Assembly: GCA_903871935.1 (NCBI GenBank)
Contig: CAIQIQ010000062.1
Location: 72,020-136,019, forward strand
Reading direction: 5' to 3'
Length of the DNA: 64,000 nt
Source of the DNA: an uncultured Phycisphaerales bacterium
Lineage (GTDB): Bacteria; Planctomycetota; Phycisphaerae; Tepidisphaerales; Tepidisphaeraceae
The notes beneath the pieces are model-generated. The model ran no database searches. It was given only the letters and a program-made list of their open reading frames with translations, and was not told the origin of the DNA. Position 1 is the stretch's first letter. Each line of letters starts with the position of its first letter. Below are positions 10,861 to 40,414 of this stretch, piece after piece. The position numbers were made by a program, and so were the translations under genes.

Positions 10861-10899
10861 CAGCAAATGAAAACCCCCGGCGATCAACATCGCCGGGGG
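10861..10899 (-). terminator. Rho-independent terminator of rpoC
   Basis: Stem CCCCCGGCGAT, loop caac, stem ATCGCCGGGGG at 10874..10899. On the minus strand it is followed by TTTTCATTTG. Confidence 0.6.
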
Positions 10900-10926
10900 A
10901 TGGGGTCACTCATGATGAGAAACTGC

Positions 10927-15387
<4,461 letters not shown>

Positions 15388-15390
15388 GAC

Positions 15391-15596
15391 CTAATCTTTC
15401 TTGGCTTCCGGAAGCTCTTCGCTTCCCCGTTTCATCACTACTTCAAATCCGCCCTGCTCCAGCTTTCTCCGACGTCTGATCTGGATCATCACCAGATTAG
15501 CAATCGCGAGCACCCACATCACCGCCATGAGCAATGCAATCATGAGCACTGCAATCCGGCTTATGTCGAATGTTGGTGCCATCTGGGCATCCTCGG

Positions 15597-15600: not shown

Positions 15601-19388
<3,788 letters not shown>

Positions 19389-19983
19389 CGGGGTTTCGTT
19401 TCAGCCTGCCAAGTTCCACCGACAAAATAAGCCGCCTTACTTAAAGAAGAGCGGCTTTCGTCGCCGGACACGCGGTTTCTCTGCACGTCCGGAGTTTTCT
19501 GGAACCCAACAAGTCAGTCGCTAACCGAAGTTAGTCAAGGCTTGGCGCAAAACGCAACAAGAACCTCTCCCGCTCTCAGCATTCAGAAAGTCGAGACAGA
19601 TTCTTTTCCTTACGAGTTTTGCTTCTTACGCGTCGCCAATTCGACATTCACAAGTCTACCGCGCTGGGCAGGCATGTCAAGCGATAGCCACCGCTCCCAA
19701 CGCGGATTTCTGCCGTCCAACGAGATATGTTATTATCATGCTAAAATATGCGGATTTTCGTTTGCGTTAACATGCTAAAACCATCGGATTCCATATTTGT
19801 CTTATTTTGCTGAAACAGCCATTTCGTCGGCCGCCCCATGGCCCACATGTCGTGATATCCGAACTTCCTGACCACCATCATTCCGGGCGCGGCAGCAAAA
19901 TACCCAATGCGCAGTTTCCCCCGCGATCTCGCTCGCCAATTGCCTTCTTGCATCCCGAAGCCCGACATGCTGCAATCTCCATC

Positions 19984-20718
19984 ATGTGCGACAGTATCAC
20001 CCGATCTCCCCAGCACCACTTCGCGACTACCCGCTGGACCGTGGTCCTCGCGGCCGGCGGCGACCCCGCTGCCCCACAGACGCGCGATGCCCTGTCATCG
20101 CTCGCCCAGACCTACTGGTATCCCCTCTACAGTTTCATCCGCCACCAAGGCTGCCCTGCCCAAGATGCCGAAGACCTGACACAGGAGTTCATCGCCAAGC
20201 TCATTGAAAAGCAATATCTCGCCGATGTTGATCCCGCCAAAGGTCGCTTTCGCTCCTTCCTCCTCGCCTCTTTGCGCCACTTTCTCTCCAACCAGCGCGA
20301 CCATGACCGCGCTGCCAAACGCGGCGGCCACAACAAACTCATCGCCCTTGACCAGCTCGACGCCGAAGCCCGCTATCGGCTTGAGCCCTCAACCGAAATG
20401 ACCCCCGAGCGCCTCTTCGACCGCCGCTGGGCGCTCGCTCTGCTTGACCGGGTTCTGCAGCGTCTCCGCGACGACTACGTCCGCAGTGGCCGGGCCAAGG
20501 TCTACGAAGCCCTCAAACCCGTCCTCCAGGCCGACCCCGATGTTCCTACGTATGCTAAGCTTGGGAAACAACTTGCAATGTCGGAGACCGCCATCAAGGT
20601 AGCAGTCCATCGCCTTCGCACCCGATATCGGCAGCTCCTGCGCGATGAAGTCGCCCAGACCGTGGCGGCCGACGCCGATCTCGATGCCGAACTGAATGAT
20701 CTTCTGAATTGCCTGTAA
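19984..20718 (+). CDS. ECF-type RNA polymerase sigma factor (STK-associated ECF group)
   Basis: The TTRWTVV motif near the N-terminus, a sigma-2 region (DLTQEFIAKLIE) and a C-terminal HTH (MSETAIKVAVHRLRTRYRQLL) are all present. The start at 19984 is taken from the internal Met of ORF 19807..20718. A Ser/Thr kinase gene follows directly. Confidence 0.8.
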   Translation: MCDSITRSPQHHFATTRWTVVLAAGGDPAAPQTRDALSSLAQTYWYPLYSFIRHQGCPAQDAEDLTQEFIAKLIEKQYLADVDPAKGRFRSFLLASLRHFLSNQRDHDRAAKRGGHNKLIALDQLDAEARYRLEPSTEMTPERLFDRRWALALLDRVLQRLRDDYVRSGRAKVYEALKPVLQADPDVPTYAKLGKQLAMSETAIKVAVHRLRTRYRQLLRDEVAQTVAADADLDAELNDLLNCL

Positions 20719-20781
20719 CCTTCTGCGCCATCCGCTTCTGCACGTATTGCAGAATCACCTGCAAGGAGAAGGAGACGGATC

Positions 20782-22428
20782 GTGACCAGCCAAGCCAATT
20801 GCCCCAGTTGCAGCACCCCCCTACCGCCAGACAGCCCCGAAGGTCTCTGCCCCTCATGCCTGATCCGCAAAGGAATGGCGCAGACCCAGCGAGCTGGCGA
20901 GCCCCAAAGCGGTTGGACACCGCCCGATGCGCAGAAGCTGGCCGAGTATTTCCCCGAACTCGATAACATCGACCTGATCGGCCGGGGCGGCATGGGCGCG
21001 GTCTACCGCGTCCGCCAGACCGCCCTCGATCGCGTGGTAGCACTCAAGATCCTCCCGCCACAACTTGCCGCCGATCCCGGCTTCGCCCAACGCTTCGCTC
21101 GCGAGGCCCAAGCCATGGCCCGCCTGAACCACCCGCACATCGTCACACTCTACGAGTCAGGCCAGCGACAGGAACTGTTCTTCTTCATCATGGAGTACAT
21201 CGACGGCGCCAACCTCCGTCATGTGATCGACTCCGGTGGCGTCTCTCCGCGGGAAGCGATGGCGATCATCCCGCAGATCTGTGAAGCACTGCAGTTCGCT
21301 CACGACAACGGCATCGTTCATCGCGACATCAAGCCCGAGAACATCCTGCTCGATCACCAGGGCCGCGTGAAGATTGCAGATTTCGGCCTGGCGCGCATCA
21401 CCGGCGGAGACGTGCCCCAGCACGCCACCGCAATGGTCATGGGCACCCCTTACTACATGGCGCCGGAGCAGGTCAACTCTCCGCAAGCCGTTGACCATCG
21501 CGCCGACATCTATTCACTGGGCGTCGTCTTCTACCAACTCCTCACTGGCGAACTGCCCATCGGCAAGTTCGACCCTCCTTCACGCAAAGTCGTCATCGAT
21601 CTGCGCCTCGATGAAGTCGTCCTGCGCACCCTGGAGAAGGAGCCCGCTCGGCGCTACCAGCACGCCAGCGACGTCAAGACGCGTGTGGAAACGATCGCAG
21701 CCTCGCCGGCATTACAGGACCATCCCGGCATGATCCTGGGCATCCTGCTCGTCGCTCAGCGCAACGGCAAGGTAAAGGTCTGCCCCGGAGGCATCTTTCG
21801 CATGATCTTTACGCTCATCACTGTTTATATCGCCGCCACAGCCATCACCAGCATGTTCGTCTCGCTCGCCGACGCCCGCTACGACCTGCTTATCCTGTTC
21901 TTCTTCCTGTGCGGCGTGATCTTCCGCGCCATCCGCCTGCGTGCCGACCAACTGCTGGACATGGATGCCAAACCGCAGCAATACCCGAAGCAGTCTCTAC
22001 TGACCGGCTGGCGCGCGCTCTTTCGCCTCGCCCGCGTGCGGCGTGAAGACAAGAGCGTGGTCTGGCCCCGGCTTATCCAATTGATCGCATACAGCCTGGG
22101 CGTGGTGATCGTCTACATAGCGGCCGTTCGCATCTATTTCGGCATTCTGGGCGTGTGGACCGGCCCATTCCTCGAACTGCTGACCACCATCGGCATGCTT
22201 GCCGGCATCCCCTTGGGCTATATCCTTGCCAGCCGGTTCTGGGACCTGCCGGCCGCACTGCCCGAACCACCGCACACTGCTCAACCAGCGCCGCAGGTCA
22301 ATAGCCCCATTGTGGATCGACCTGATTCACCAGCGCCTCGCCCGCAATCAAATGGCGAAAGTTCCGCTCCATCAGCTCACCAAACCGCCGGGCATGGTAT
22401 GGAGAGTGACCTGAAACATGGGGGGTGA
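20782..22428 (+). CDS. Ser/Thr protein kinase with N-terminal CxxC...CxxC zinc-ribbon and C-terminal polytopic membrane region
   Basis: A GTG start follows an AAGGAGAAGGAG RBS. The N-terminus is CPSCS...CPSC. Hanks kinase motifs are present: GRGGMGAVY, ALK, HRDIKPENILLD, DFGLAR and APE. Three or four TM helices follow, then a Pro-rich tail. Confidence 0.85.
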   Translation: MTSQANCPSCSTPLPPDSPEGLCPSCLIRKGMAQTQRAGEPQSGWTPPDAQKLAEYFPELDNIDLIGRGGMGAVYRVRQTALDRVVALKILPPQLAADPGFAQRFAREAQAMARLNHPHIVTLYESGQRQELFFFIMEYIDGANLRHVIDSGGVSPREAMAIIPQICEALQFAHDNGIVHRDIKPENILLDHQGRVKIADFGLARITGGDVPQHATAMVMGTPYYMAPEQVNSPQAVDHRADIYSLGVVFYQLLTGELPIGKFDPPSRKVVIDLRLDEVVLRTLEKEPARRYQHASDVKTRVETIAASPALQDHPGMILGILLVAQRNGKVKVCPGGIFRMIFTLITVYIAATAITSMFVSLADARYDLLILFFFLCGVIFRAIRLRADQLLDMDAKPQQYPKQSLLTGWRALFRLARVRREDKSVVWPRLIQLIAYSLGVVIVYIAAVRIYFGILGVWTGPFLELLTTIGMLAGIPLGYILASRFWDLPAALPEPPHTAQPAPQVNSPIVDRPDSPAPRPQSNGESSAPSAHQTAGHGMESDLKHGG

Positions 22429-23242
22429 CGATGACGTTGGGCATCGCCCACAGCGGGCTGTCGGCCGGCAGCGGCTCAGGATCAAACACATCCAGCCCCG
22501 CCCCGCCAAGCCGGCCGGCTAGAAGAGCCTCGATCATCGCCTGCTGGTCGATTGCAGAACCGCGCCCGACATTATAAACGCACGCGCCCGGCATCATCAG
22601 GCCGATGCGCTCGGCACTGATGATGTACCGTGTATGCACGGTTCCAGGCAGCGCAAGAACCACATGATCCGCACGGGGAAGCAGGCTGTCCAAAGCGCCA
22701 AGCGTAGCCAGCTCATCCACGTATGAGGGCATCGCCGACACCGTCCGCTTCACGCCGATTACATGCATCCCCATTGCCCGCGCTCGCTTGGCAACCTCCG
22801 AGCCGATGTCGCCCAAACCGATGATCATGCACGTAGCGCCCAGCAACTCGCGCCGATTCTCCGGCCGGTGCCACCGCTTCTGCTCCTGGCTGCGCACCAT
22901 CTCCGGCAACCGAATCGCCAGCGCAAACATCATCGCCAGCACATGCTCGGCGATCGGAACTCCAAACACCCCGCGAGCGTTCGTAAGGATCACTCCGCCG
23001 GGCATCTTCCCAGCGTAGCCATCAGCGCCCGCACTGGGCAACTGCAGCCAGCGCAACCCAGTCGCACGGTCCAGGTCCGCCTTCGCCGGCCAACCCACAA
23101 TGATCTGCGCCCTGGGCAGTTCTTCATCCACGGCCCTCTCGCGGTGCTTCCCGTGCACAATCCTCAACGTCGCATCCAGCGCCTCGAGCCGCCGACATAA
23201 TACTTCGGGCAATCCGAACAGATCGAGCAGAACACGTTCCAT
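22298..23242 (-). CDS. D-isomer-specific 2-hydroxyacid dehydrogenase family protein (NAD-binding)
   Basis: The Rossmann motif GLGDIGSEVAKRA and the catalytic region with HVSG are present. Start is taken at MERVLLDL. The 3' end overlaps the kinase gene convergently by about 130 nt. Confidence 0.8.
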   Translation of the reverse strand: MERVLLDLFGLPEVLCRRLEALDATLRIVHGKHRERAVDEELPRAQIIVGWPAKADLDRATGLRWLQLPSAGADGYAGKMPGGVILTNARGVFGVPIAEHVLAMMFALAIRLPEMVRSQEQKRWHRPENRRELLGATCMIIGLGDIGSEVAKRARAMGMHVIGVKRTVSAMPSYVDELATLGALDSLLPRADHVVLALPGTVHTRYIISAERIGLMMPGACVYNVGRGSAIDQQAMIEALLAGRLGGAGLDVFDPEPLPADSPLWAMPNVIVTPHVSGHSPYHARRFGELMERNFRHLIAGEALVNQVDPQWGY

Positions 23243-23481
23243 GCCGCCTTTTCTACCGGGCCGGCCGCCCTTTGGCCACTCGCCAAGCACGCGGATGCGC
23301 CCATGGTGACGCACCAGACGGACATACTGTCGCGCCTGCTGCCTTCTATCGCACAACCGAGCACATCCAGACGATTAGCTCTAACCATCAGAACAATGGG
23401 TGTTTACATCTCAACCGCTATCCCGCATGAGCATGGTTGGCCCGGGTTTTGCACCGTGGCGACACAAAGTGGGAGGTGGAC

Positions 23482-23955
23482 ATGTCAAAGGGATCGTCGC
23501 AGAAGTCGGCGTTCACGCTCATAGAACTGATGATCGTCATCATCATTGTGGCGGTGCTTGCCGCGGTCATAGTTCCCATGCTGCAGAACATGTCCCCCGC
23601 TGCCCGTGAGGCAGCACTCCGGGGCGACCTGCACAGTCTTCGCCATCAGATACTGATATATCAGATGCACCACAATGGCGACCCGCCGTCGCCAGCCCAG
23701 CTTCGCGATCAACTGCTGAATCGCACCACAGCAGATGGCCAGATCGATCCGCAGGGGAGCCTCGGTCCTTATCTGATCACTTTCCCGAGCAATCCGTTCA
23801 ACAGTCGCGTTGACGTCAAGGCCCTTGCCTCCGGCGGACAACTCGCCGCCGACGACACCAGCGGGTGGCTGTACGGCGTGGAAGGATCCAACTTCACCAT
23901 CGTCGCCAACTCGTCGGGACAAGACCGCTCGGGCGTACCGCTGATCCAATACTGA
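23482..23955 (+). CDS. Prepilin-type N-terminal cleavage/methylation domain protein (type IV pilin/pseudopilin-like)
   Basis: A GGAGG RBS precedes the start. The N-terminus MSKGSSQKSAFTLIELMIVIIIVAVLAAVIVP matches the class III signal, G FTLIE. Confidence 0.75.
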   Translation: MSKGSSQKSAFTLIELMIVIIIVAVLAAVIVPMLQNMSPAAREAALRGDLHSLRHQILIYQMHHNGDPPSPAQLRDQLLNRTTADGQIDPQGSLGPYLITFPSNPFNSRVDVKALASGGQLAADDTSGWLYGVEGSNFTIVANSSGQDRSGVPLIQY

Positions 23956-24041
23956 CCTGGCGGGCGTGAGGCTGCGTGGATCTCAGGATGACTCTCGACA
24001 CGGAAGCGTGCAGGGTCCGGCTGGAGGTTTGGAGGGAGCAA

Positions 24042-24092
24042 GGCGAGGACGGACGCATGGCATTCATGCCCGTCCTCGCCGATCTTTCCTCT
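24042..24092 (+). terminator. Putative hairpin terminator downstream of the pilin-like gene
   Basis: Stem GGCGAGGACGG, an 18-nt loop, stem CCGTCCTCGCC, then gatctttcctct. The trailing T-run is weak. Confidence 0.35.
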
Positions 24093-24117
24093 GCGCAGAA
24101 CTCGTCCTGCGGGCCAG

Positions 24118-24360
24118 CTACCGCACACTGTCCAGCACGTGTTGAATCCTCTCCACGTCGGCGCCCTTGCCGAACTCAATCACCGCCGCTTCCGGGGTGC
24201 CTATGGGGGCATGAGTATCATCCTCCAGCGTGAAAGGAATGCCGTAAGTCGCCAACAGAGTTTCCACGCGCGCGATCTCGGCCGGCGGGATCATGATGTA
24301 TGGCCCGCATTCCGCATCCTGTCGAACATCAACTCGATCTTCTGCAAAACCATCCCACAT
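24118..24360 (-). CDS. Small hypothetical protein (80 aa)
   Basis: An AAGGGGGA RBS precedes the ATG. I recognise no family with confidence; a DUF2007-like fold is only a guess. It lies immediately downstream of the 145-bp dispersed repeat. Confidence 0.4.
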   Translation of the reverse strand: MWDGFAEDRVDVRQDAECGPYIMIPPAEIARVETLLATYGIPFTLEDDTHAPIGTPEAAVIEFGKGADVERIQHVLDSVR

Positions 24361-24397
24361 GAAATCCCCCTTTCTTCTATGATATTATGGTTGCTGC

Positions 24398-24540
24398 ACC
24401 TTTGTCCTCATCGGCTATCCAGATCACTGATCATCGCAGATTGCGCGCACGAACCTGAGCACCTTTGTCCTCTCCGGCCAATGACTTCAGGACAAGTGAC
24501 CAATGACCAGAAAGAAACTTACGCACCTCCTTCTCCATCA
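24398..24540 (-). repeat. 145-bp dispersed repeat, inverted copy of 34295..34440
   Basis: The reverse complement of 24398..24540 matches 34295..34440 at roughly 90-93% identity, read by eye. It contains two of the SD-plus-start-like units, GGAGGTGCGTAAGTTTC and ACAAAGGTGCTCAGGTTCG. Confidence 0.7.
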
Positions 24541-24694
24541 AAACGCTAACCACTTATACCACAACCCCTTACAACGATAACAGTTATTCGCGCGACCTCG
24601 GCTATCTTCCTTCCCTTCGTGCCTCCGCGCCCCAGTGCCTTCGTGCCTGCCATTTCCGAATTGCACCAACTGCCGTTGCGGGTAGGGTAAGTAC

Positions 24695-25663
24695 ATGGCC
24701 AAGGCATTGGAGGAGAAACTGGCGCGGGTAGGTACTCTGGATGCTTCGACCGTCGAGGGATGCGAACAGTTGCGCAAGGCCTTGGGGGACAAATCGAATC
24801 TCGTGGTGGCGAAGGTCGCGAAGCGCATTCTGCGAGAGAAGATTGCGGAACTCGCGGGAGAGTTGCCGGGCGTGTTCATGCGGCTGATGGCCGGGGGAAC
24901 GGCGGCCGATAAGGGATGCATGGCGAAGCTGGAGATTGCTCAGGCCATCTACCAACTCGGCGCGGCCATGGACGGAGCGGAGGAGGCGCTGGTTGCGGGG
25001 GTACATCATGTGCAAATGGGGCCGACCTTCGGCGGGATGGTCGACACTGCTCCAGAGTTGCGAGGCGTGTGCGCCTTGGGGCTGGTGCGGATGGGGTATC
25101 GGGATGTGATGATGGAGTTGGCGGACCTGCTGGCGGACAAGGAGCCGCAGGCGCGAATCATGGCCGCCCGGGCGATTGCGTATGCGGGCGTGGAAAGCGG
25201 AGCACTGCTGCTGCGACTCAAAGTGCTCAGCGGCGATCCGGATACGACGGTGATGGCGGAGTGCTTTACCGCGCTGGTGCAGCTTACGCCGGCGAAGGCG
25301 CTGCCGCTGCTGGAGCGGTTCCTGGATCGTGGCGACACAGATCTGGCCCAAGAGGCGGCAATTGCGATTGCCTCATCCAGGCGCGAGGAGGCGCTGGGAA
25401 TCCTGTGCCGCCACTGGGAGAAGGATATCACGCGACGAGAATCGCTTTTGGTCCCACTGGCGATCCTGCGCCGGCCAGAGGCAGTGGAGATGCTGCTGAG
25501 CGTGATCGAGAGTGGACCCGAAGCACTGGCGCTAGCCGCCACCGACGCAATGGGAATGTACCGGTCAGATGCCACGGTGGCTCAACGCGTGCTGGCATCG
25601 GCAAAGAGCCGCGGACCCGCCGTGCAGCGGGCAGCAGTCAAGGCGTTGGGGGATTCCGATTGA
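24695..25663 (+). CDS. HEAT-repeat (PBS-lyase-like) protein
   Basis: Repeated alpha-helical units with motifs such as AARAIAYAG, ECFTALVQL and AAVKALGDS. Length is 322 aa. Confidence 0.7.
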   Translation: MAKALEEKLARVGTLDASTVEGCEQLRKALGDKSNLVVAKVAKRILREKIAELAGELPGVFMRLMAGGTAADKGCMAKLEIAQAIYQLGAAMDGAEEALVAGVHHVQMGPTFGGMVDTAPELRGVCALGLVRMGYRDVMMELADLLADKEPQARIMAARAIAYAGVESGALLLRLKVLSGDPDTTVMAECFTALVQLTPAKALPLLERFLDRGDTDLAQEAAIAIASSRREEALGILCRHWEKDITRRESLLVPLAILRRPEAVEMLLSVIESGPEALALAATDAMGMYRSDATVAQRVLASAKSRGPAVQRAAVKALGDSD

Positions 25664-25685
25664 AACCTGGTCCGGTGAGACCGCG

Positions 25686-27059
25686 TTACAGCTCGTATTC
25701 CTTGATCTTCCGGTAGAGCGTGCGTTCGCCGATGCCGAGAATCTTGGCCGCATGTTCGCGGTTGCCTTCGACCATCTTCAGCGTGTTGCGGATCAGTTCC
25801 TTTTCGGCCTGCTCGATGGAGATGCCGACCAGGTTGTTCATTCCGCCAAGAGAGTCGGCGGCGGCTTTAGGCCGAATGTCGGCGGGCAGAGCCTCCACGC
25901 CCAATCGCTTTTCTGAGGAGAGCACCACCATGTTCTCGATCACGTTCTTAAGCTGGCGGACATTGCCCGGCCAGTTAAAGCTCATCAGCGTCTGGTGGGC
26001 CTCGGGTGTAACTCCCTCCAGTTGCTTGCCATACTTCTCGGCCGCCTGGGTGAGGAAGTAGTGGATCAGCACCGGAATGTCTTCGCGGCGCTCCCGCAGC
26101 GGCGGGATCTGGATGGTCGCGCCTTTGATGCGGAAGTAGAGATCCTCCCGGAACTGTCGTTCGGAGACCATCTCTTCGATTTGGCGATTTGTCGCACTGA
26201 TAAAGCGGACGTTCACTCTGATCGGATCGTTGGCGCCCAGGCGGACAACTTCGCCGTTCTCCAGGACACGCAGCAGCTTGGCCTGCATCGCCGCCGGCAT
26301 GTCGCCGATTTCATCGAGGAACAGCGTGCCGGTGTCGGCGTGCTCAAACCGGCCGGCCCGGTCGCCCTGGGCACCGGTAAATGCGCCTCTGACGTGGCCA
26401 AACAGCTCATCTTCAAGGATGGATTCGGACAGCCCGGCGCAGTTCAGGTTCACCATGCGGTTCTTCCGCCGACGCGAGTGGCTGTGGATGGCCCGGGCGA
26501 TGAGTTCTTTGCCGGTCCCGCTTTCGCCCAGGATCAGGATCGGAATATCGCTCATGGCAACCTGCCGTGCCATCTGCACGACGCTGCGCATCGAGGCCGA
26601 GGCGCCGATGATTCCTTCAAATCCGACCTGTTGTTCGATCTGCTCCTGGAGGAACTGGTTCTGTTTCTGCAGAACCGATTTCTCGGCAGCGCGGCCAACC
26701 TGGGCACGAAAATAGTCCAGGTCCAGCGGCTTCTCGATGTAGTCGTAGGCGCCTTCGGAGAGGGCCGTCCGGCAGGTGGGAACGTCGGCATGGGCAGTCA
26801 CCAGGATAACCGGCGGAGCGGGGCTCATTTTCGTTGCCGCACGCAGCACATCCAGGCCTTCGGGTTTGCCTTCCATCATCAGGTCGGTAACGATCACATC
26901 GAAACTGCGTTTGGCCAGGCGTTCATCCGCCTCGGCCTGGTTGTACGCCACCTCACAGCGATGCCCCATGCGCTGCAACGCCTCGCACATTACCTGTGCG
27001 TGGTCCTGCTCATCGTCCACGATGAGGATGGTAGACCGGTTCACCTCATTCTGCGCCAT
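25686..27059 (-). CDS. Sigma54-dependent response regulator (NtrC family: REC + AAA+ + Fis HTH)
   Basis: The receiver domain is ILIVDDEQDHAQV...DVIVTDLMMEG. The AAA+ core has GESGTGKE, GAFTGA and ESELFGH. A C-terminal HTH is present. No cognate histidine kinase is adjacent. Confidence 0.9.
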   Translation of the reverse strand: MAQNEVNRSTILIVDDEQDHAQVMCEALQRMGHRCEVAYNQAEADERLAKRSFDVIVTDLMMEGKPEGLDVLRAATKMSPAPPVILVTAHADVPTCRTALSEGAYDYIEKPLDLDYFRAQVGRAAEKSVLQKQNQFLQEQIEQQVGFEGIIGASASMRSVVQMARQVAMSDIPILILGESGTGKELIARAIHSHSRRRKNRMVNLNCAGLSESILEDELFGHVRGAFTGAQGDRAGRFEHADTGTLFLDEIGDMPAAMQAKLLRVLENGEVVRLGANDPIRVNVRFISATNRQIEEMVSERQFREDLYFRIKGATIQIPPLRERREDIPVLIHYFLTQAAEKYGKQLEGVTPEAHQTLMSFNWPGNVRQLKNVIENMVVLSSEKRLGVEALPADIRPKAAADSLGGMNNLVGISIEQAEKELIRNTLKMVEGNREHAAKILGIGERTLYRKIKEYEL

Positions 27060-27114
27060 GGCGGAAGTGGTAACACAGAATGATGCTAACGTAAATACGC
27101 GGCGTTGGTCTCCT

Positions 27115-28296
27115 CTACCCGAATCCGCCGGTTCGCGTGCCGAGGTTGTCCAGCACATTCATGTAGTTGATGTAACTGTCGTAGGGGCTCTCATAGGGTG
27201 AGAAGTATTTGTGCACATCGCCGTCGGCGAAGTACTTCGTGCTCATGTAGTAGAAGTGGTCGCTGGTGGTCAGGCAGCGCCAGTCGGAGAGAAGCTGCGG
27301 ATCGCCGGAACTCTTCACCGCCTTCTCCAGGCTGAAGAGCCCCCGCATCGCGTGGTCCTGCATAGCATTGCCGGTCCAGGCCGACAGATCGCGTTCGGTG
27401 TCGGCCCAGGATACGGGCTCGGGCACATCATAGGTGTCGCTGGCGCTGCAGTGGGCCAGAAGATCGGAGGGGGTGGCGAAGTCGTTCCGACCGGTCTCGA
27501 GCACACGGATGGGCAGGTATCGCATGAACTCAAAGATGCCGGTCTGGGCCCACTGGTGTTCACCAAGAGTTTCAAGGTCGATGAACAGATTGCAGACACT
27601 GCCGTTGCCGTTGATCTGATCCACCCAGTGGGCGAACTTGTCTGCAGTCAGTGGCCATTGTTCCCAGGCCCGGTTCGAGAAGCGGAAGGCAATGTCATCG
27701 CTCAGGCGGAAGTTCTTCAGAAGTAGCTTGAAGTCTGGCATGCCCGGCGGATGGTATAGCACATTGGGCGTACGAGTACCCAGAAGGTGATCGGCGCCCT
27801 CGGCCAAAGCGCCGGCCAATCCTGCGTGCTGTGCGAACTGGCCCAATGCGTTGGAGTAGACAAGTTCAGTATTGCGAAACACACGCGGCTGATAGCCAAA
27901 CAGGGCATGGATGGTATCGCGGTGCATCTGGACCTGTTGAGCAAACTCATCCCAGGAATGCAGAAACGCCAGCGAGTGGTAATACGTCTCCGCCAGCAGT
28001 TCAACGCAGCCAGTGGCGACCAGTTTCTTCAAGGCCTCAATGACCTCGGGCGAATAGCGTTGAAACTGCTCAATCGCACAGCCGGTAATGGAGAACGACA
28101 CGCGGAAGCGGCCGTTGTGCTCACGAATCAAGTCGTGGAGCAGGTGGGTGGCCGGAAGGTAACATCGGTCGGCGACCTTGCGGCAGATCGTGCGATTAGC
28201 ATGGTCATCGAAGTAGTCCCAGAGGGTATCAAACACGCTATACCGCCGCAGCCGCAGCGGTTGGTGCATTTGAAAATAAAAACATACCGATGCCAT
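27115..28296 (-). CDS. Glycoside hydrolase family 57 protein
   Basis: The N-terminus MASVCFYFQMHQPLRL carries the GH57 HQP signature. Start is taken at the ATG at 28296, preceded by a GGGGA RBS; the ORF extends to a GTG at 28332. It is co-oriented with the sigma54 response regulator, 55 nt away. Confidence 0.8.
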   Translation of the reverse strand: MASVCFYFQMHQPLRLRRYSVFDTLWDYFDDHANRTICRKVADRCYLPATHLLHDLIREHNGRFRVSFSITGCAIEQFQRYSPEVIEALKKLVATGCVELLAETYYHSLAFLHSWDEFAQQVQMHRDTIHALFGYQPRVFRNTELVYSNALGQFAQHAGLAGALAEGADHLLGTRTPNVLYHPPGMPDFKLLLKNFRLSDDIAFRFSNRAWEQWPLTADKFAHWVDQINGNGSVCNLFIDLETLGEHQWAQTGIFEFMRYLPIRVLETGRNDFATPSDLLAHCSASDTYDVPEPVSWADTERDLSAWTGNAMQDHAMRGLFSLEKAVKSSGDPQLLSDWRCLTTSDHFYYMSTKYFADGDVHKYFSPYESPYDSYINYMNVLDNLGTRTGGFG

Positions 28297-28409
28297 GTCC
28301 CCGTACCAATCTTCTGTAGGATTGTAAGGCACAACATGTAACCGTCCATGGCTAAACGAGATAGAATTCCCATTGCCCCTTTGCTGGGTTATAATTCAGT
28401 ATTCAGGCC

Positions 28410-28757
28410 ATGCAGATGCCACCGATCGAGAATCTTCGCATCGCTTTTGCGCAATCCATCATTGCCACAATGGCAACGCAGGTCAGCAGCTACATGCGCC
28501 TAGTCGCTCACCCGGACGTCCAGTTTGCCGACCTGCTGGACGCGTTGGAGCGCAATGCCGTGATTGGCGACGACGCGGCCCAGCGTCTGCACCGGCGACT
28601 GGCCGTGCCCGTCGGCACGAGCTCCCTCATGGTGCAGCGCGGCTACTGGGAGCAGGTGCTTGCAGAACGCAGCATTCCGCTTACCGCGCCATTCCGGACC
28701 CAGCCCGAGGCTGCCGCGCCGGCCGCCGCCCCCGAGGCAGAGTTGAAGGCGTCCTGA
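28410..28757 (+). CDS. Small hypothetical protein (115 aa)
   Basis: The ORF ends 11 nt before the mannitol-dehydrogenase-family gene start and has an Ala/Pro-rich C-terminus. Calling it coding rests only on ORF length and position. Confidence 0.35.
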   Translation: MQMPPIENLRIAFAQSIIATMATQVSSYMRLVAHPDVQFADLLDALERNAVIGDDAAQRLHRRLAVPVGTSSLMVQRGYWEQVLAERSIPLTAPFRTQPEAAAPAAAPEAELKAS

Positions 28758-28768
28758 GCATCACCAAC

Positions 28769-29989
28769 ATGCCTGATCAACGCTGTTTCGCTGGGTTTGG
28801 GTTTGGTCCGATACAGTCGGGCTTGTTCCTCTATGAAGCATTCCGCACCGGACGGTTTTCCCGCCTGGTGGTCGCTGAAGTCGATGACCGGATCGTGGAG
28901 TTACTCCGCGCCAGCGGCGGAGAATATCATCTGAACATCGCCCATGCCCAAGGCATCGAGAAGGCGACCATACGCGGTATCGAGGTCTATAACCCTCACA
29001 GAGCCGAGGATCGGCAGAAGCTGCTGGCGGCGATTGCAGGGGCCGATGAGCTATCCACCGCTCTGCCAAGCGTCAGCTTCTTCGCCTCGGGTGGTGAGGC
29101 GTCGGTGGTTTCCGTATTGGCTGATGCACTGAAGAGTGCACCTGAAAAGCACCGCATTCTCTATGCCGCGGAAAACCACAACCACGCGGCGGAAATCCTG
29201 GCGGACCACCTTACCCAACGGCTTGGGCGCAACGCTCTCGATGGTTTCCAGATCGTCAACACGGTGATCGGCAAGATGAGCGGCGTGATCACCGACCCGG
29301 CGCAGATCCGGGAACTGCAGTTGGCAACGCTGACCCCCGCAGCCGATCGTGCGGTGTTGGTTGAGGCGTTCAACCGGATACTGATTGGCCGAATCCAGCC
29401 GGGCATCGTGCGTGGAATCGACGCCTTCATTGAAAAGGATGATCTTTTGCCGTTCGAGGAGGCAAAGCTGTATGGGCACAACGCGGTTCATGCACTGATC
29501 GGTTACCTGGCGCATCAGCGCGGATTGGCGCTGATGTCGCAGGTTGCGGCCCACCTGGAGATTCTGGCTGTTGCTCGTCGGGCGTTTATGGAGGAGTCCG
29601 GTGCTGCCTTGGTGCAGAAGTATGCCCATTTGAACGATCCATTCTTCACGGCCGAAGGATATGGTGCCTATGCCGAGGATCTGCTGCAACGGATGGTGAA
29701 CCCGAATCTGCAGGATCTGGTGGCGCGGGTTATTCGTGACCCGCAGCGGAAGCTGTCGTGGAATGACCGCCTGCTCGGGACGATGCGCCTGGCGCTGCAG
29801 TACGGCATCCGGCCCGTGAACATGGCGCAAGGGGTGGCCGCGGCCCTGGCATTCGCTCTGGGCCGAACGCCAGAGTCGAAGGCAGAGGTAGGGAACGCGC
29901 TGCAGGCGATCTGGGGCGAGACAGCGCAGGAGCCCACGGCGAGCGAACTGGTGGACCTGACGTGGGACGCCGTGCGACACTGCACTTGA
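28769..29989 (+). CDS. Mannitol dehydrogenase family oxidoreductase (UxuB/UxaB/MtlD-like)
   Basis: The N-terminus MPDQRCFAGFGFGPIQSGLF resembles the FGAGNIGRGF dinucleotide motif of mannitol, mannonate and altronate dehydrogenases. The C-terminal domain is helical. Start is taken at the internal ATG at 28769 of ORF 28373..29989. Confidence 0.7.
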   Translation: MPDQRCFAGFGFGPIQSGLFLYEAFRTGRFSRLVVAEVDDRIVELLRASGGEYHLNIAHAQGIEKATIRGIEVYNPHRAEDRQKLLAAIAGADELSTALPSVSFFASGGEASVVSVLADALKSAPEKHRILYAAENHNHAAEILADHLTQRLGRNALDGFQIVNTVIGKMSGVITDPAQIRELQLATLTPAADRAVLVEAFNRILIGRIQPGIVRGIDAFIEKDDLLPFEEAKLYGHNAVHALIGYLAHQRGLALMSQVAAHLEILAVARRAFMEESGAALVQKYAHLNDPFFTAEGYGAYAEDLLQRMVNPNLQDLVARVIRDPQRKLSWNDRLLGTMRLALQYGIRPVNMAQGVAAALAFALGRTPESKAEVGNALQAIWGETAQEPTASELVDLTWDAVRHCT

Positions 29990-30006
29990 GCACGGTCGGG
30001 ATTACA

Positions 30007-31164
30007 ATGGGCTCAATGGCAAAGGTGAACAGGCCCGTCGAGGTGGTTGTTGCAGGTCATATCTGTCTGGATGTGATTCCAGAGTTCCCTCCACATGCTT
30101 TGGCCGGCGCGATCAGCCCGGGTGCGCTGGTGAAGGTGGGACCGGCGCTGCGCTCAACCGGCGGCGCAGTCGCCAACACGGGGCTGGCGCTGCACCGGCT
30201 TGGCATTGGCGTGCGCCTGGTGGGCAAGGTGGGGCATGACCTGTTTGGAGAAGAGATCATCAACATCTTGCGCTCACATTCCCCCGATTTGGCAGCAGGG
30301 ATGATCGTGTCCGATCGTGATACGTCGAGCTACACCGTGGTGATATCGCCGCCAGGGACCGATCGCACGTTTCTCCATTGTCCCGGCGCCAATGACACGC
30401 TGAGCAGCCGGGATGTGCCAGATAGCGCCCTTGCCGGGGCGCGGCTGCTGCACTTTGGATACCCGCCACTGATGCGGCGGATGTACCTAAAGAACGGCGA
30501 TGAACTGCGGAGGCTGATGAAGCGGGCCAGAACAATGGGGCTGACGACCAGCCTCGACATGGCTGAGCCGGATGCGGCGTCGGAGGCAGGGAAGGTGGAT
30601 TGGGTGGCACTGCTTAAGAATGTGCTGGGCGAGGTAGACATCTTCGCTCCGAGCATCCAGGAAGTGCTTTTTATGGCCGACCGGAAGACGTACGCGAAAC
30701 TGACCAGAAAGACCGGAGCCATCGAGGTCAAACGTGATGTGACGCGAGGCCTTCTGCAGTCGCTGTCGGGCAACCTGCTGGAATGGGGGGCGGCCGTGGT
30801 GATGATCAAGCTGGGAGAGCAGGGGGCGTATTTGCGCACCAGCAGTAACAGGGCCCGCCTGTTTGGGATGGGGGCCTGCACTCCACGAGACGTGTCGCCA
30901 TGGATCGGGTGCGAGTTGAGGGCACCGTGCTTTAAGGCCAAGGTGGTCGGGACCACCGGCGCGGGTGATTGCGCTATTGCGGGTTTTTTGGCTGGCGTGC
31001 TCAAGGGCCTGACTCCTGAGGGCTGCCTGCGATTCGCGGTGGCTGTCGGCGCCTGCAGCGTTGAGGCGCCTGATGCGACCAGCGGCGTGCCGAACTGGAA
31101 CAGGGTAAGACAGCGTATACGCGATGGTTGGCCGACGTTGCCATCTTGCATCGACGTGGCATAG
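30007..31164 (+). CDS. PfkB-family carbohydrate kinase (ribokinase/KdgK-like)
   Basis: The N-terminal sheet VVVAGHICLDV, the TGGAVANTG motif and the C-terminal GAGDCAIAGF anion hole with catalytic Asp are all present. Confidence 0.8.
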   Translation: MGSMAKVNRPVEVVVAGHICLDVIPEFPPHALAGAISPGALVKVGPALRSTGGAVANTGLALHRLGIGVRLVGKVGHDLFGEEIINILRSHSPDLAAGMIVSDRDTSSYTVVISPPGTDRTFLHCPGANDTLSSRDVPDSALAGARLLHFGYPPLMRRMYLKNGDELRRLMKRARTMGLTTSLDMAEPDAASEAGKVDWVALLKNVLGEVDIFAPSIQEVLFMADRKTYAKLTRKTGAIEVKRDVTRGLLQSLSGNLLEWGAAVVMIKLGEQGAYLRTSSNRARLFGMGACTPRDVSPWIGCELRAPCFKAKVVGTTGAGDCAIAGFLAGVLKGLTPEGCLRFAVAVGACSVEAPDATSGVPNWNRVRQRIRDGWPTLPSCIDVA

Positions 31165-31201
31165 AGCGGTGTCCATGCGTTCCAGTCGCTCGCGATCTTC
31201 A

Positions 31202-32005
31202 CTACACGTACTGCATCCGTAAGACCTTTAGCGCGGTGCCACCGAGGATCTTCCGCTTCTCGTCATCGTTGATATTTGCGTAGAGTAAGGAACCCAGGGC
31301 GTGCAGAGCGGAAAACCAACCCAGGGCATCGGAACCAAAGAGGAGCTTTTCGCCTCCCAGTTCTTTGACGAAGTATTCGAGCACTCCGTTGTGAATGCTG
31401 GCGTCGGTCAGTTCCAGGTAGATGTTGGGATGCCTTTGGGCTAAGCGAACGGCACCCGCGAAATCCGGCTCGAAGCAGTGGGCGCAGCAGATTGGCACCG
31501 ATGGGTATTCCGCGGCGATCTTGTCATAGATGGCGACTCCGCTCAGCGGGGAATCCCAGGTATGGCTGATGATGGGTAAGCCATGGTCGGCCGCAAAGCG
31601 GAAGACAGGCTTGTAGTTGGCGCCATCGGCCGGGTAACCATTGCCATCAGGGTGAATCTTGATGCCTTTCCAGCTCAATTCCGATGCGTAATGCTCGAGC
31701 TCCTGCTGCGTTTCTTCCGGGTATCGGGCACTGGGAAGAACAAACGGAATGAAGCGTTTGGGGCTGTGGGCGGCGAATTCTTTGACCACCTGGTTGCCCA
31801 GAACGTGATCGGAACCCATACCCGCGTTCGAGAACAGCACCGAATAGCCAATGCCGGCCGAGTCCATGACCTTGAGCATCGAAGCCGGGGAGAGATCGGG
31901 CGTGTAGAAATTGCGCCAGGGACCGACGTGGCCGTGCATATCGACCACCGGACAGTTCAAGGGCTGTCCCTTTTTCGCCATTTCCAGCAGAGAAGGTTCG
32001 CTCAT
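31202..32005 (-). CDS. Amidohydrolase_2 (TIM-barrel metal-dependent hydrolase) family protein
   Basis: The VVDMHGH metal-binding start, HTWDSP and a conserved Asp near the C-terminus are present. The start overlaps the upstream amidohydrolase stop as ATGA. Confidence 0.75.
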   Translation of the reverse strand: MSEPSLLEMAKKGQPLNCPVVDMHGHVGPWRNFYTPDLSPASMLKVMDSAGIGYSVLFSNAGMGSDHVLGNQVVKEFAAHSPKRFIPFVLPSARYPEETQQELEHYASELSWKGIKIHPDGNGYPADGANYKPVFRFAADHGLPIISHTWDSPLSGVAIYDKIAAEYPSVPICCAHCFEPDFAGAVRLAQRHPNIYLELTDASIHNGVLEYFVKELGGEKLLFGSDALGWFSALHALGSLLYANINDDEKRKILGGTALKVLRMQYV

Positions 32006-32757
32006 TTGGTCCTCACTTGGTCCAGGAGCTGCTGTAGATTGCGGCTGGCGATATTGGCTCGATCGGCGTCCGAAATCGAAGCATAGTTGAGCATTCCCAG
32101 CGAGGCGCCCGGTGTCAACATCGGCCAGCCGGACCCCCACAATAACCGCTGACTGCCGAACTTGGCGCAGATATCTTCCAGGCAAAGATGAGTGCGCAAG
32201 AGGGAAGTCTCCAGTCGCAGCTTCGGGAACTCGGTCATCAGAGGATAGGTAAAGCGGGCGCGATCCCAGGTCGAGATATCGGTTAGAACCAGATTGAGGT
32301 CGTTATATTTGCCGAGTAGGTGGTATACCTCGCTCCAATCGGTTTCACGCAGGCTCAAGAAGACTGGAACCTTGTGTCTTGCCAGAACCTTGAACATGTC
32401 CTGGCAGCCGAATTCCAGCGGATAGCCGTGCATCTTCGGATACAGGGCGACAGCGCGAATACCGCCGGCAACCAGATTCTGCAGAAGCTGATCGATCGGC
32501 GGCAGGTGCATGGTGGCTGAAGGCCCGATGACCGCGAGGCCCTGCAGGACGGGATACGGCTGAATCTCCTTCGTTAGCAGTTCGATACCGGTGGCGGGGT
32601 CGTACTCGCTCGCCGCGGCGAGCCGGACCAGCGCCCGGTCGATGCCACAGCGAGCCATGGTCTGCACCAGATCGTCGGTCTTCCACGGTTCGTAGAACGG
32701 GCGCTGGTTGCGGCGGCCGATCTGACAGTTTGCATCAAAGAGCATTTCCACCTCCAC
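32002..32757 (-). CDS. Amidohydrolase_2-like TIM-barrel hydrolase (second paralog)
   Basis: A 251-aa protein with a similar fold signature (LFDANCQIG ... LLWGSGWP). It is translationally coupled to 31202..32005. Confidence 0.65.
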   Translation of the reverse strand: MEVEMLFDANCQIGRRNQRPFYEPWKTDDLVQTMARCGIDRALVRLAAASEYDPATGIELLTKEIQPYPVLQGLAVIGPSATMHLPPIDQLLQNLVAGGIRAVALYPKMHGYPLEFGCQDMFKVLARHKVPVFLSLRETDWSEVYHLLGKYNDLNLVLTDISTWDRARFTYPLMTEFPKLRLETSLLRTHLCLEDICAKFGSQRLLWGSGWPMLTPGASLGMLNYASISDADRANIASRNLQQLLDQVRTK

Positions 32758-32769
32758 CGTTGGCGACCG

Positions 32770-33774: not shown

Positions 33775-33879
33775 AGTGCGGGAATGATAGTGGAAACAAA
33801 CCAGAGGCGGCAATGGATGGGTGATCGTCATTGATTCCCGGCCGCGCCGGGATTTCGCTTCGCTCAACATTGGTCAATA

Positions 33880-34930: not shown

Positions 34931-34985
34931 ACAAAGACGTCCCATGGCAACCGGAAACGCTTCACCGTCTCGTCGCGCAGGCAAG
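34895..34985 (+). promoter_or_regulatory. Conserved ~70-nt 5' module spanning the start codon of the GDPD gene (paralog at 37383..37465)
   Basis: CTACACCGCTCCTGACAGACCTGCTACAAAGACGTCCCATGGCAACCGGAAACGCTTCACCGTCTCGTCGCG is about 85% identical to 37383..37455. The module includes TA(C/T)AAAG 8 nt before the ATG and the first ~12 codons. Confidence 0.4.
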
Positions 34986-35684: not shown

Positions 35685-35759
35685 CGGCTGTAATGGCACA
35701 GAGCCGCGCGGAGCACACGATCTGGATTTGGTGTAGAATCCGCTTCTTGAAGGCGGCAT

Positions 35760-37401: not shown

Positions 37402-37465
37402 GAGACCTGCTATAAAGACGCCCCATGGCCAGCGAAAACACTACCTCGTCTCGTCGCGTTCCCTT
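37383..37465 (+). promoter_or_regulatory. Second copy of the conserved ~70-nt 5' module, spanning the start codon of the oxidoreductase gene
   Basis: CTACACCGCTTCTGAGAGACCTGCTATAAAGACGCCCCATGGCCAGCGAAAACACTACCTCGTCTCGTCGCG. Compare with 34895..34985. Confidence 0.4.
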
Positions 37466-39675: not shown

Positions 39676-39677
39676 CC

Positions 39678-40403: not shown

Positions 40404-40414
40404 ACTTTCGTGAT

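Follow-up and report, generated by a model that had tools for sequence, protein, structure and literature searches.

MITEs, such as the Correia/NEMIS elements of Neisseria, are short, non-coding, intergenic and multi-copy, and may donate promoter elements. Repeats in bacteria are also found at the ends of rearrangements: inversions flanked by pairs of inverted repeats (IR) are the common pattern, surveyed in P. aeruginosa and E. coli, where rRNA operons, IS copies or other repeats recombine homologously (PMC5372343). Putative mobile promoters (PMPs) are homologous upstream regions that stand before non-homologous genes; by definition they share at least 80% identity over 50-100 nt, and recombination-mediated duplication is one mechanism proposed for them (PMC3488235).

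The repeat pair described here lies in a 64,000-nt stretch of DNA from an uncultured planctomycete (the window, to which all coordinates refer unless stated). Its two copies, A and B, face in opposite directions and are separated by 9.6 kb. The reverse complement of 24398-24540 aligns with 34295-34440 at ~92% identity (MAFFT), and blastn within the window extends this to a gapless inverted match of 205 nt (24396-24600 to 34236-34440; 88%, E = 2.6e-67), inside which a core of ~145 nt reaches ~95%. When gaps are allowed, family-level homology of copy A runs to ~24661. Copy A is flanked by an 80-aa ORF (ORF80; 24118-24360, minus strand) and a HEAT-repeat gene (24695-25663, plus strand), and copy B by a GFO/IDH/MocA gene (32770 to about 33774, minus strand) and a GDPD gene (34944-35684, plus strand). 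The edge of copy A is 36 nt from the ATG of ORF80, which is a real conserved gene: it has 49 homologues, nearly all of 80 aa and at 60-92% identity, and is also called as a gene in independent assemblies. The first-pass annotation, made from the sequence alone, was therefore right to describe an inverted repeat with both copies intergenic and A directly upstream of the ORF.

It was also right to see in A a solo piece of a larger family of repeats. A and B, together with a third tract, C, are members of an undescribed family of modular intergenic elements, 0.5-1 kb long, in this uncultured Phycisphaerae-type planctomycete. Block profiles recover seven full and two or three partial members (E 1e-31 to 1e-40). 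At least seven further members, ~70-75% alike, adjoin unrelated genes on related metagenome contigs, and members other than A and B are mutually ~67-80% identical, so that the "75% divergence" first given for the family stands as a figure of identity and falls as one of divergence. A scan of the contigs of representative genomes with a 20-nt core gave 18 single matches in unrelated taxa, with ~17 expected by chance and 0 confirmed by profile.

Two motifs recur in every full element. The R motif, RRTGCKCARGWTC, has 8 occurrences against 0.12 expected, and its boxes frequently read GGAGGTG..., in the manner of an extended Shine-Dalgarno sequence. R units lie on a single strand in every copy and are non-tandem, with spacings of 13-172 nt and a number per element that varies from four to seven. 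The D motif, TTGTGGATAA, is presumably identical to the DnaA-box consensus, the resemblance being one of sequence. Each element carries two invariant TGTGGATAA at fixed spacing plus a degenerate third, and perfect 9-mers of this kind in the window are confined to elements. Conservation over 7 copies is 93-98% in the boxes against 71% in the spacer, and the R1-R2 span stays at 94-95 nt; the sub-motifs TGCGCA and GGTACC are palindromic. The elements end in one of two alternative outward-facing 3' modules, type I or type II, the latter with a conserved TTGACA. Over its full length the element strand has a G>C skew of ~0.25-0.3, as high as in spacers known to be transcribed, rpoB-rpoC among them; in tract B the skew spans about 33840 to about 34830. 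The parts of the three members are as follows.

24396-24661, minus strand: copy A, a truncated family member (centre and first half of block 2)
24422-24566, minus strand: high-identity tract of A, ~95% identical to B 34270-34414 by sliding identity
24118-24360, minus strand: 80-aa gene (ORF80), directly downstream of copy A
33775-34943, plus strand: tract B, the whole 1.17-kb G-rich intergenic region with the full element B (from the true GFO start and the skew)
About 34047-34686, plus strand: element B, the fuller, complete family member
34047-34190, plus strand: block 1 of B (D1, R1, R2, D2), boxes and spacing conserved over 7 copies
34191-34363, plus strand: variable centre of B, with a degenerate R unit, a D-like box TTGTGAGATAAGT, an extra R unit (34309-34321) and the TCATTGG segment
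34364-34520, plus strand: block 2 of B (R3, two hairpins, R4, tail)
34595-34686, plus strand: type II 3' module of B, with the conserved TTGACA (34633-34638) directed at the GDPD gene
63055-64000, plus strand: tract C, a third family member (block 1 at 63551-63694, block 2 from 63828), cut by the contig and window end

The modules of element B follow the canonical order, which seven other copies share. Its D1 is TTGTGGATAAGT (34051-34062), of which 34053-34061 is a perfect TGTGGATAA, followed by R1 (34068-34080), R2 (34149-34161) and D2 (34168-34180). Block 2 runs from R3 (34373-34385, plus GCGCGCGCA) through a hairpin at ~34405-34426 and R4 (34436-34448) to the hairpin CCTACTTGTCCGGTCGG and the tail GGTATTCACTTGTGAAAGAACG. 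Tract C holds seven R units and two perfect TGTGGATAA boxes; no other assembly carries its anchor genes, from which a continuation past the contig end could be read. Copy A is truncated at both its 5' and 3' ends and retains, in degenerate form, an R unit (24591-24625) and a D-like box, together with two R units (24515-24527 and 24451-24463), the TCATTGG segment, a hairpin that has decayed and the first part of R4. Its limits, set by three-way alignments with a relative and an outgroup, show that it occupies the entire gap between the native upstream sequences of ORF80 and the HEAT gene. The end of A supplies a -35-like AGGACA, 18 nt upstream of TATCAT (24408 to 24379; a match to consensus only), and this hybrid -35/-10 pair at the A/ORF80 junction is the one match in the promoter consensus scan.

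The genes between the two copies are inverted relative to sister genomes. The comparison set consists of one close relative (85-92% nucleotide identity) and one outgroup. Window 24660-34326 is collinear with 9966-19483 of the relative's sequence L064, and 34595-41000 and 19003-24376 match it reversed (blastn). The gene order on the relative's contig ctg81627l reads GDPD(-)...HEAT(+)...GFO334(-)-E(+)...ORF80(+)...rpoBC, where E is the relative's own element. The outgroup contig ctg79482l has the relative's arrangement, so the inversion is derived in the window's lineage.

24660-34326, unstranded: inverted block, reversed relative to both flanks in the comparison with the close relative and outgroup; it holds HEAT, a sigma-54 activator, GH57, mannitol dehydrogenase, PfkB, two amidohydrolases, GFO334 and the 5' part of element B
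24377-24659, unstranded: left breakpoint interval, filled by copy A
34327-34594, unstranded: right breakpoint interval, which falls within element B and covers the TCATTGG segment, R3, hairpin, R4 and tail

Both breakpoint intervals thus coincide with the repeat, the one holding A and the other the matching part of B. Element B itself is collinear with the relative through 34326 and reversed from 34595, and its type II module is 94.6% identical to L064 9951-9860, an ortholog that adjoins the HEAT gene in reversed orientation. The junctions are not assembly artefacts: the ORF80-A-HEAT junction is common to at least 22 contigs from several samples, and the relative's junctions are seen in a contig with a long-read-style name as well as in the independent Logan contigs L058 and L065. 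On the HEAT side the relative has a 92-nt type II remnant and no full inverted partner, and its element E is without the piece made up of the TCATTGG segment, R3 and the hairpin. In the outgroup neither block of the element is present. That the two copies bracket a 9.6-kb inversion, the main point of this analysis, was absent from the first-pass annotation.

Could copy A nevertheless be a mobile element in its own right? Recent transposition of a 145-bp MITE-like sub-element had been one of two proposals of the first-pass annotation; it is taken here as transposition, or mobilisation in trans, to the site upstream of the 80-aa ORF. Two highly identical, dispersed intergenic copies, one of them short, do bring such elements to mind. 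However, a repeat search finds no terminal inverted repeats (TIRs) in 24340-24720, the best candidate being an internal 20-nt pair at 75%, and there is no target-site duplication (TSD) at copy A, where the flanking GGTTGCTGCA and TTGCACCAAC do not form a direct repeat. As had been stated, there is no transposase in the window, whose sole recombinase is a housekeeping XerC (57021-58082). The elements have no match in collections of viral contigs, plasmids or phages, and identity between the copies fades gradually to paralogue level with no sharp element ends. At the orthologous site the close relative shows a synteny breakpoint and not an empty insertion site: in relative and outgroup alike homology ends at the element and does not resume, and different genes lie beyond. 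The piece shared by A and B (TCATTGG segment, R3 and hairpin) occurs in these two copies only among all sequences retrieved, and the flanking synteny is rearranged, which is essentially the combination that had been named at the outset as arguing against an inserted sub-element. Recent transposition is accordingly very improbable, and near-identity of dispersed repeats alone does not imply it.

Inverted repeats at both ends of the block, with a tyrosine recombinase in the same window, would also suit a phase-variable invertible switch in which the elements are the programmed sites of a site-specific recombinase. Yet that recombinase is an XerC equivalog 23 kb from the inverted block, with none within or beside it; the block is in a single orientation in all 22 contigs of the population that were read; and invertase sites are short, whereas these repeats are long and have diverged. 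We give this idea hardly any credence. A DGR TR/VR pair was also considered and rejected, as the mismatches are mixed and not adenine-specific, both copies are intergenic and no RT is present.

Identity is unevenly distributed along the two copies. In the 5' third of the alignment A and B agree at 11/29 to 25/40 positions (40-62%), where B and E agree at 27/29 to 35/40, the 5' part of B being orthologous to the relative's element. In the core, A-B identity rises to 36-39/40 per sliding window, above the 85-92% of orthologous DNA between the window's genome and the relative. A 24591-24625 is 83% identical to tract C 63735-63769, and since the 5' part of A matches tract C, not B, A pre-existed as a separate paralogue. 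A core at ~95% beside a 5' part at 40-62% is a pattern that fits a crossover or gene-conversion tract. The exceptional identity had been taken as a sign of recent sequence exchange, and of the two routes then offered it is gene conversion that this gradient favours.

A and B are paralogous members of the family, one truncated and one complete, and recombination between inverted repeats, not a mini-transposon, probably flipped the HEAT-to-GFO334 block. As the copies are inverted and 9.6 kb apart, homologous recombination between them would invert the intervening genes; the partners may have been A and B themselves or the ancestral X and E. Crossing over, with accompanying gene conversion, would have homogenised ~145 nt of A and B, which would account for a tract at ~95% in copies, and in a family, that are otherwise 40-75% alike. 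A deletion with TGC microhomology at its joint, later than the inversion or concurrent with it, would have trimmed A to 36 nt from the ORF80 start codon. Because the relative has no full partner on the HEAT side and E does not carry the shared piece, we infer an ancestral full inverted pair, which assumes at least two extra deletions; the order proposed for these and the inversion is tentative.

The ORF80-side junction of copy A (24395/24396) shows TGC microhomology only, which is the usual mark of an illegitimate joint, not of a homologous one, and counts against the recombination model. Illegitimate breakage and joining, by staggered breaks or microhomology-mediated template switching, could itself have made the inversion, in which case the core of A would be an inverted partial duplicate of B, a by-product and not a substrate. 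This would sit well with that junction, with the incompleteness of A as an element, with the missing full inverted partner at the relative's HEAT junction and with a ~95% core that is younger than the split from the relative. However, the 5' ~100 nt of A is family sequence closer to tract C than to B, which a simple copy of B would not be. Within B, moreover, the duplicated core is internal and away from the breakpoint-proximal end, a placement not predicted by staggered breaks, and the module order of B is the canonical one. We regard illegitimate joining as an unlikely source of the inversion. Recombination between the repeats is the preferred account. The locus offers a natural case, cleanly resolved, of an inversion bounded by repeats in an uncultured planctomycete, with polarity, breakpoints and a putative crossover/conversion tract visible in metagenome data.

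A conserved, modular, oriented intergenic element with DnaA-box-like and Shine-Dalgarno-like boxes is undescribed. The reading that we prefer is that the family may act as a regulatory leader or promoter cassette that is transcribed, rich in G and for the most part unstructured. Such a cassette would carry reiterated one-way R and D protein-binding boxes upstream of either 3' module, and recombination would shuffle it between unrelated genes. In tract B and in L049 the matches of a sigma-70 consensus scan do not rise above chance, and the same holds for a terminator scan. No tRNA or tmRNA lies downstream of the elements. A known RNA family was rejected, Rfam being empty at gathering and permissive thresholds: there is no match at the gathering score in the window and none at E<=1 in six paralogous loci, with one chance match at E = 5. 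A structured RNA was set aside too. RNAalifold on both strands yields no conserved fold (-14 and -9 kcal/mol; covariation terms +1.6 and -0.4), single-sequence stabilities of the type I module are close to those of shuffles (z = -0.25 and -1.37), and one 7-bp spacer hairpin, the first of block 2, shows modest covariation.

The lack of a global RNA structure would also suit a role at the level of DNA, in which the elements are sites of nucleoprotein assembly, such as DnaA-titrating or DnaA-regulated clusters (datA, DARS) or the arrays of another protein, and transcription is irrelevant. The invariant pair of D boxes with its degenerate third, the confinement of perfect 9-mers to elements, the fixed motif spacing despite spacer divergence and the palindromic sub-motifs all point in this direction. 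Duplex binding sites do not, however, need R units on one strand or a strong strand skew; the spacer hairpin shows some compensatory change; and the identity of the D box with a DnaA box is a putative one, a resemblance in sequence. A DNA-level role is a real but minority possibility. A replication origin was rejected, as there is no clear skew switch and perfect boxes occur only in dispersed elements, and so was a plasmid-type iteron origin, the R units not being tandem and neither a rep gene nor plasmid or phage similarity being present.

The family may also have no host function. Elements coincide with synteny breaks, rearrangement, indels, IS insertions and assembly breaks, and their dispersed copies beside unrelated genes, modular and with variable unit number, are what a selfish or neutral non-autonomous repeat spread by recombination, in the manner of BIME or BOX, would look like. 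Old copies at ~70% identity nevertheless retain invariant boxes and fixed spacings, which indicates purifying selection, and element B and its ortholog E are kept at the same locus in two species. A purely selfish or neutral family therefore seems doubtful. Coding roles were rejected both for a JGI-called 53-aa ORF in block 1, which is uncalled in the relative and whose frame is broken by 1-nt indels that distinguish copies in the R1-R2 spacer, and for a 34-codon frame in the type I module, where substitutions are non-codon-like. A leader of a single gene family does not fit either, the downstream genes being unrelated.

The preferred regulatory cassette could be taken further, to a new class of 0.5-1 kb transcribed Phycisphaerae elements, G-rich and mostly unstructured, whose R and D boxes would recruit a global factor or titrate it away, be it an RNA-binding protein, 30S subunits or DnaA, so forming a dispersed regulatory network and, at the same time, recombination hotspots that reshuffle gene order; from the motifs at hand this is a speculative extension with a small chance of being correct. 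The literature on repeats, promoters and DnaA boxes in Planctomycetes yielded nothing specific, and to our knowledge almost nothing is known of promoters and leaders in the host's phylum. If the elements are transcribed or DnaA-bound, they would offer a view onto regulation in a phylum where both are almost uncharted.

How does the family compare with described systems? Like the Correia/NEMIS type of MITE, its members are short, non-coding, intergenic, multi-copy and potential promoter donors to their neighbours, but A and B have no TIRs, TSD, near-identical multi-copy set, clean empty site or cognate transposase. They share with the BIMEs of E. coli and the BOX elements of Streptococcus pneumoniae a modular, transposase-free, intergenic build from few box types in fixed order and variable units. 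The elements here are longer (0.5-1 kb), with a strongly G-rich strand, two alternative 3' modules, copies that are far more diverged, and units that all point one way and are not palindromic REP-like hairpins. DnaA-box clusters (datA and DARS1/2 of E. coli, the DBCs of B. subtilis) likewise have intergenic consensus boxes at fixed spacing, a likeness in sequence only, whereas each element here has two or three boxes alongside four to seven R motifs and there are many copies per genome. The sponge sRNAs of the CsrB/RsmZ type also reiterate a short purine-rich motif one way in non-coding DNA, which here is possibly transcribed, but the elements are without the GGA-in-hairpin-loop architecture, an Rfam match or a terminator. 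As homologous non-coding DNA upstream of non-homologous genes the family resembles PMPs, although the threshold of 80% identity over 50-100 nt is attained by the A/B core and the type I modules alone, and promoters here are candidates. The inversion itself departs from the IR-flanked inversions already surveyed (PMC5372343) in that its repeats, which share ~0.2-0.27 kb, are diverged non-coding members of an undescribed family in place of IS elements or rRNA operons. One of the partners is truncated, the block measures less than 10 kb, and the event is seen in metagenome assemblies, not isolates. It agrees with them in that the inverted pair lies exactly at the ends of the block, close relatives differ in the orientation of that block, and both ends outlast the event.

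The inverted match read by eye between the 24 kb and 34 kb regions is real. By alignment, the reverse complement of 24398-24540 is about 92% identical to 34295-34440, and exact-seed extension with blastn within the window carries the gapless match to 205 nt (24396-24600 against 34236-34440; 88%, E = 2.6e-67), of which the longest exact stretch is 49 nt. Both copies are indeed intergenic, and with a third tract they form one repeat family:

24396-24661: copy A, between ORF80, an 80-aa ORF (24118-24360, - strand), and a HEAT-repeat gene (HEAT; 24695-25663, + strand)
34 kb: copy B, between a GFO/IDH/MocA oxidoreductase gene (- strand) and the GDPD gene (34944-35684, + strand)
63055-64000: tract C, at the window's right end, collinear with tract B in two blocks
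57021-58082, - strand: tyrosine recombinase scoring above the XerC equivalog cutoff, the sole recombinase in the window

ORF80 has 49 homologues, nearly all of 80 aa and 60-92% identical, and is a real gene. The oxidoreductase gene (- strand, from 32770) has homologues of about 334 aa, which suggest a true start near 33774, not 33870.

The setting of the two copies points to a chromosomal rearrangement. The window is chromosomal, carrying rpoB and rpoC at 10.9-19.4 kb, and homologues with a named source indicate Tepidisphaeraceae and Phycisphaerae. Its closest relative (ENA ERZ21831265, contig ctg81627l, loci L057 and L064) shares 85-92% nucleotide identity over most of the common region, though a few genes are at about 80%. 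The relative reads GBBH, 2-phosphosulfolactate phosphatase(-), methyltransferase(-), GFO387(-), ..., GDPD(-), GAF(+), 142 aa(-), HEAT(+), sigma-54 activator(-), GH57(-), ..., GFO334(-), family element E(+), IS21(-), ..., hydrolase(-), ORF80(+), N-methyl protein(-), ..., rpoB(+), rpoC(+). By blastn, window positions 24660-33816, 33958-33999 and 34142-34326 are collinear with L064 9966-19483, while 34595-34686, 34909-35686 and 37386-41000 match L064, and 19003-24376 matches L057, in reverse. These orientations indicate that a 9.67-kb block, 24660-34326, is inverted with respect to both flanks; the breakpoint intervals, 24377-24659 and 34327-34594, correspond to copy A and to the segment of copy B that matches it. 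An outgroup contig, ctg79482l (L066; HEAT protein 74% identical), has GFO387(-)...HEAT(+)...GFO334(-) as in the relative, and since it shares that order the inversion is derived in the window's lineage. Assembly artefacts are unlikely at these junctions: the ORF80-A-HEAT junction is common to at least 22 contigs from several samples, and the relative's junctions are found both in ctg81627l, probably a long-read assembly to judge by its name form (ctg...l), and in Logan contigs independent of it (L058, L065). The A/B pair marks a derived 9.6-kb inversion between two family members, which the first-pass annotation overlooked. The relative also has 9.5 kb between E and ORF80 without counterpart in the window, and a second IS (rve integrase; L057 5381-6370) about 2.4 kb past IS21.

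Scanning metagenomes with the conserved 20-mer TGCTCAGGTTNGYGCGCRCA, and then searching with profiles, yielded five full members (L027, L028, L035, L049 and L055, with L035 equal to L029 over the element) and a partial one (L046); all these loci except L029 are contigs of a single assembly, Ga0209083. In a collection of species-representative genomes the TGCTCAGGTTNGYGCGCRCA pattern gave single matches at chance level only. The genes flanking different copies are unrelated. The architecture is constant across the aligned copies:

Block 1: D1 (TTGTGGATAAGT) - R1 (GGTGCGCARGTTC) - spacer - R2 - D2 (TTGTGGATAACTC)
Centre: variable, with 0-3 additional R units
Block 2: R3 (GATGCTCAGGTTAGCGCGCGCA) - hairpin - R4 (GGTGCTCAAGATCGGTGCGCA) - second hairpin - tail GGTATTCAGTTGnGAAAgAACG
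3' module, type I: TCTACCTATACAGG then GTCGCGCTTTTTGCGCGCAAAGCGCACCAC, about 200 nt, about 90% alike between copies
3' module, type II: alternative to type I, with conserved TTGACA

Tracts B and C align at about 69% in each of two segments, 34050-34216 against 63554-63718 and 34364-34464 against 63829-63929. Of the eight occurrences of the R motif RRTGCKCARGWTC in the window (0.12 expected), seven lie inside the three tracts, and R units lie on a single strand within every copy. Boxes are 93-98% conserved in seven copies and the R1-R2 span is held at 94-95 nt, yet the spacer is merely 71% conserved; invariant boxes at constant spacing despite spacer divergence argue for selection on the boxes. 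The equivalent intergenic tract of the outgroup, on the GFO334 side, keeps the family tail, a TCTACTATAT box and R-like units, and in place of block 1 has about eight copies of GTGTAGCA spaced by about 11-12 nt (L066 19300-19420), which points to tracts of this kind as evolving binding-site arrays. Contig ends cut off both tract C and its 86% relative in L027 (1-62), either just within the type I module or shortly before it; the window, which corresponds to JGI contig Ga0114951_10000068, runs 18 nt (63983-64000) beyond that contig's end. Being about 90% alike between copies, type I modules probably break short-read assemblies.

Copy A had been described as a fragment of a larger repetitive tract, and this holds. 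Three-way alignments with the close relative and the outgroup show native ORF80 upstream DNA up to 24395 and native HEAT upstream DNA from about 24662, which sets the copy at 24396-24661. It continues past the B match into likeness with tract C (24591-24625 against 63735-63769, 83%) and comprises the element centre, R3, the hairpin and the start of R4, without block 1, tail or 3' module. Its composition is that of a truncated family member, not of a sub-element. Immediately ahead of ORF80, TATCAT is preceded at a distance of 18 nt by AGGACA, which the truncated R4 supplies. The MITE-like transposition proposed for it is not supported: neither terminal inverted repeats nor a target-site duplication was found around copy A, which showed none of the four MITE features tested. 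That the window holds no transposase was correctly noted.

Recent sequence exchange, the other part of that proposal, stands. Element E shares with B the 5' flank AGCAGCGACGAAGCGACGGAGCGACGA, block 1 and centre, and is its ortholog. In a three-way A/B/E alignment, A and B are identical at only 11/29 to 25/40 positions over the first ~100 columns, against 27/29 to 35/40 for B and E, and then at 36-39/40 between columns 110 and about 245 (A 24422-24566, B 34270-34414). This core, at about 95%, is closer than orthologous DNA between the two genomes, which implies a localised tract laid on diverged paralogues and younger than the split from the relative. Such a pattern is the expected signature of a crossover with a gene-conversion tract between inverted copies. 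Copy B would then carry the 5' part of E fused to the 3' end of X, an ancestral partner element on the HEAT side, and copy A the reverse combination, 5' from X and 3' from E. The type II module of B (34595-34686) is orthologous (94.6%) to a remnant directly adjoining HEAT in the relative and pointing away from it, in agreement with a crossover. Could the inversion have been illegitimate, with the core of A copied from B during the event? The crossover requires additional steps, for which this alternative is retained: the relative's HEAT-side element would have lost everything 5' of its type II module; E would have lost its R3 unit, while its type I module is split by IS21 (IstA/IstB; L057 444-2983); and A would have had its 3' part deleted, R4 (ending AAAGGTGC) being joined to native AGCAACC at a TGC microhomology. 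The 5' part of A, however, is diverged and C-like, and we regard an illegitimate event as improbable.

As for what the family is, searches of viral contigs, plasmids and phages gave no hit, which speaks against an origin from plasmids, phages or IS elements. A known or structured RNA is disfavoured, as the element has no Rfam match, consensus folds are weak and without covariation on both strands, and type I module stability is at shuffle level; the sole covariation is a 7-bp hairpin between R3 and R4 with modest compensatory change (double changes in three pairs), whose observed values were reached by 5-8 of 500 shuffles. Coding is contradicted by frame-breaking indels in block 1 and non-codon-like substitutions. 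A 34-codon open frame at GTGTCGCGC, kept in three type I copies (L049 ~2985-3091(-), L028 and L046), is probably not coding, since its start overlaps an SD-like motif and substitutions are even over codon positions. The 53-aa gene called by JGI at 34129-34290(+), over block 1 and centre of B, is probably false, as no gene is called at the relative's orthologous place and 1-nt indels in the R1-R2 spacer break the frame.

D1 and D2 contain TGTGGATAA, presumably the reverse complement of the DnaA-box consensus TTATCCACA, a resemblance in sequence, and perfect DnaA-box-like 9-mers in the window lie inside elements only; a purely DNA-level nucleoprotein site, for DnaA or another protein, is possible. 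For 0.8-1 kb, beginning 170-370 nt ahead of block 1, G is near 0.35 and C near 0.19 on the element strand. Necessarily transcribed spacers such as rpoB-rpoC carry the same G>C skew (about 0.25) on their sense strand, as do non-coding spacers between co-directional genes (for example 15388-15596, 10670-10926, 1296-1452, 41034-41295); the skew seems to be a genome-wide compositional mark of untranslated transcribed RNA and could serve to predict transcript strands. Many R units read GGAGGTG, resembling an extended Shine-Dalgarno sequence, the type II module retains TTGACA, and the tail/type I junction of L046 and L027 reads TTGAGA-N17/18-TATACA. Among functional alternatives, which possibly include a selfish mosaic repeat, we tentatively prefer a regulatory leader or promoter cassette that is transcribed, has little structure and carries repeated putative binding boxes.

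Other repeats lie elsewhere in the window. Two near-identical 41-nt perfect palindromes (AAAGGGGTCGGGAGTCTTTT[A/T]AAAAGACTCCCGACCCCTTT; 45434-45474 and 48684-48724) bracket sugar ABC-transporter genes (45392-48678); they may act as bidirectional terminators or form a small family of palindromic repeats. A 72-nt direct repeat (85%; 34906-34977 and 37387-37458), conserved in relative and outgroup, covers the start codons of GDPD and a second GFO/IDH/MocA gene (about -38 to +34 relative to each) and resembles a common leader followed by an N-terminal 'SRR' signal, possibly of Tat type. A GAYGCN-type repeat at 45039-45194 (periods 6, 18, 24 and 30 nt), within ORF 44511-45299(-), would encode a low-complexity acidic stretch.

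As an event, the inversion is ordinary in kind: inversions bounded by pairs of inverted repeats prevail in P. aeruginosa and E. coli (PMC5372343). Putative mobile promoters are stretches of homologous DNA upstream of genes that are not themselves homologous, and recombination is among the routes proposed for their spread (PMC3488235). No publication describing the present family was found in the literature, and we take it to be an undescribed modular variant of known intergenic mosaic repeats. It resembles such mosaics (BIME, BOX) and putative mobile promoters, but differs from them in length, one-way orientation, strand skew, box content and copy age.
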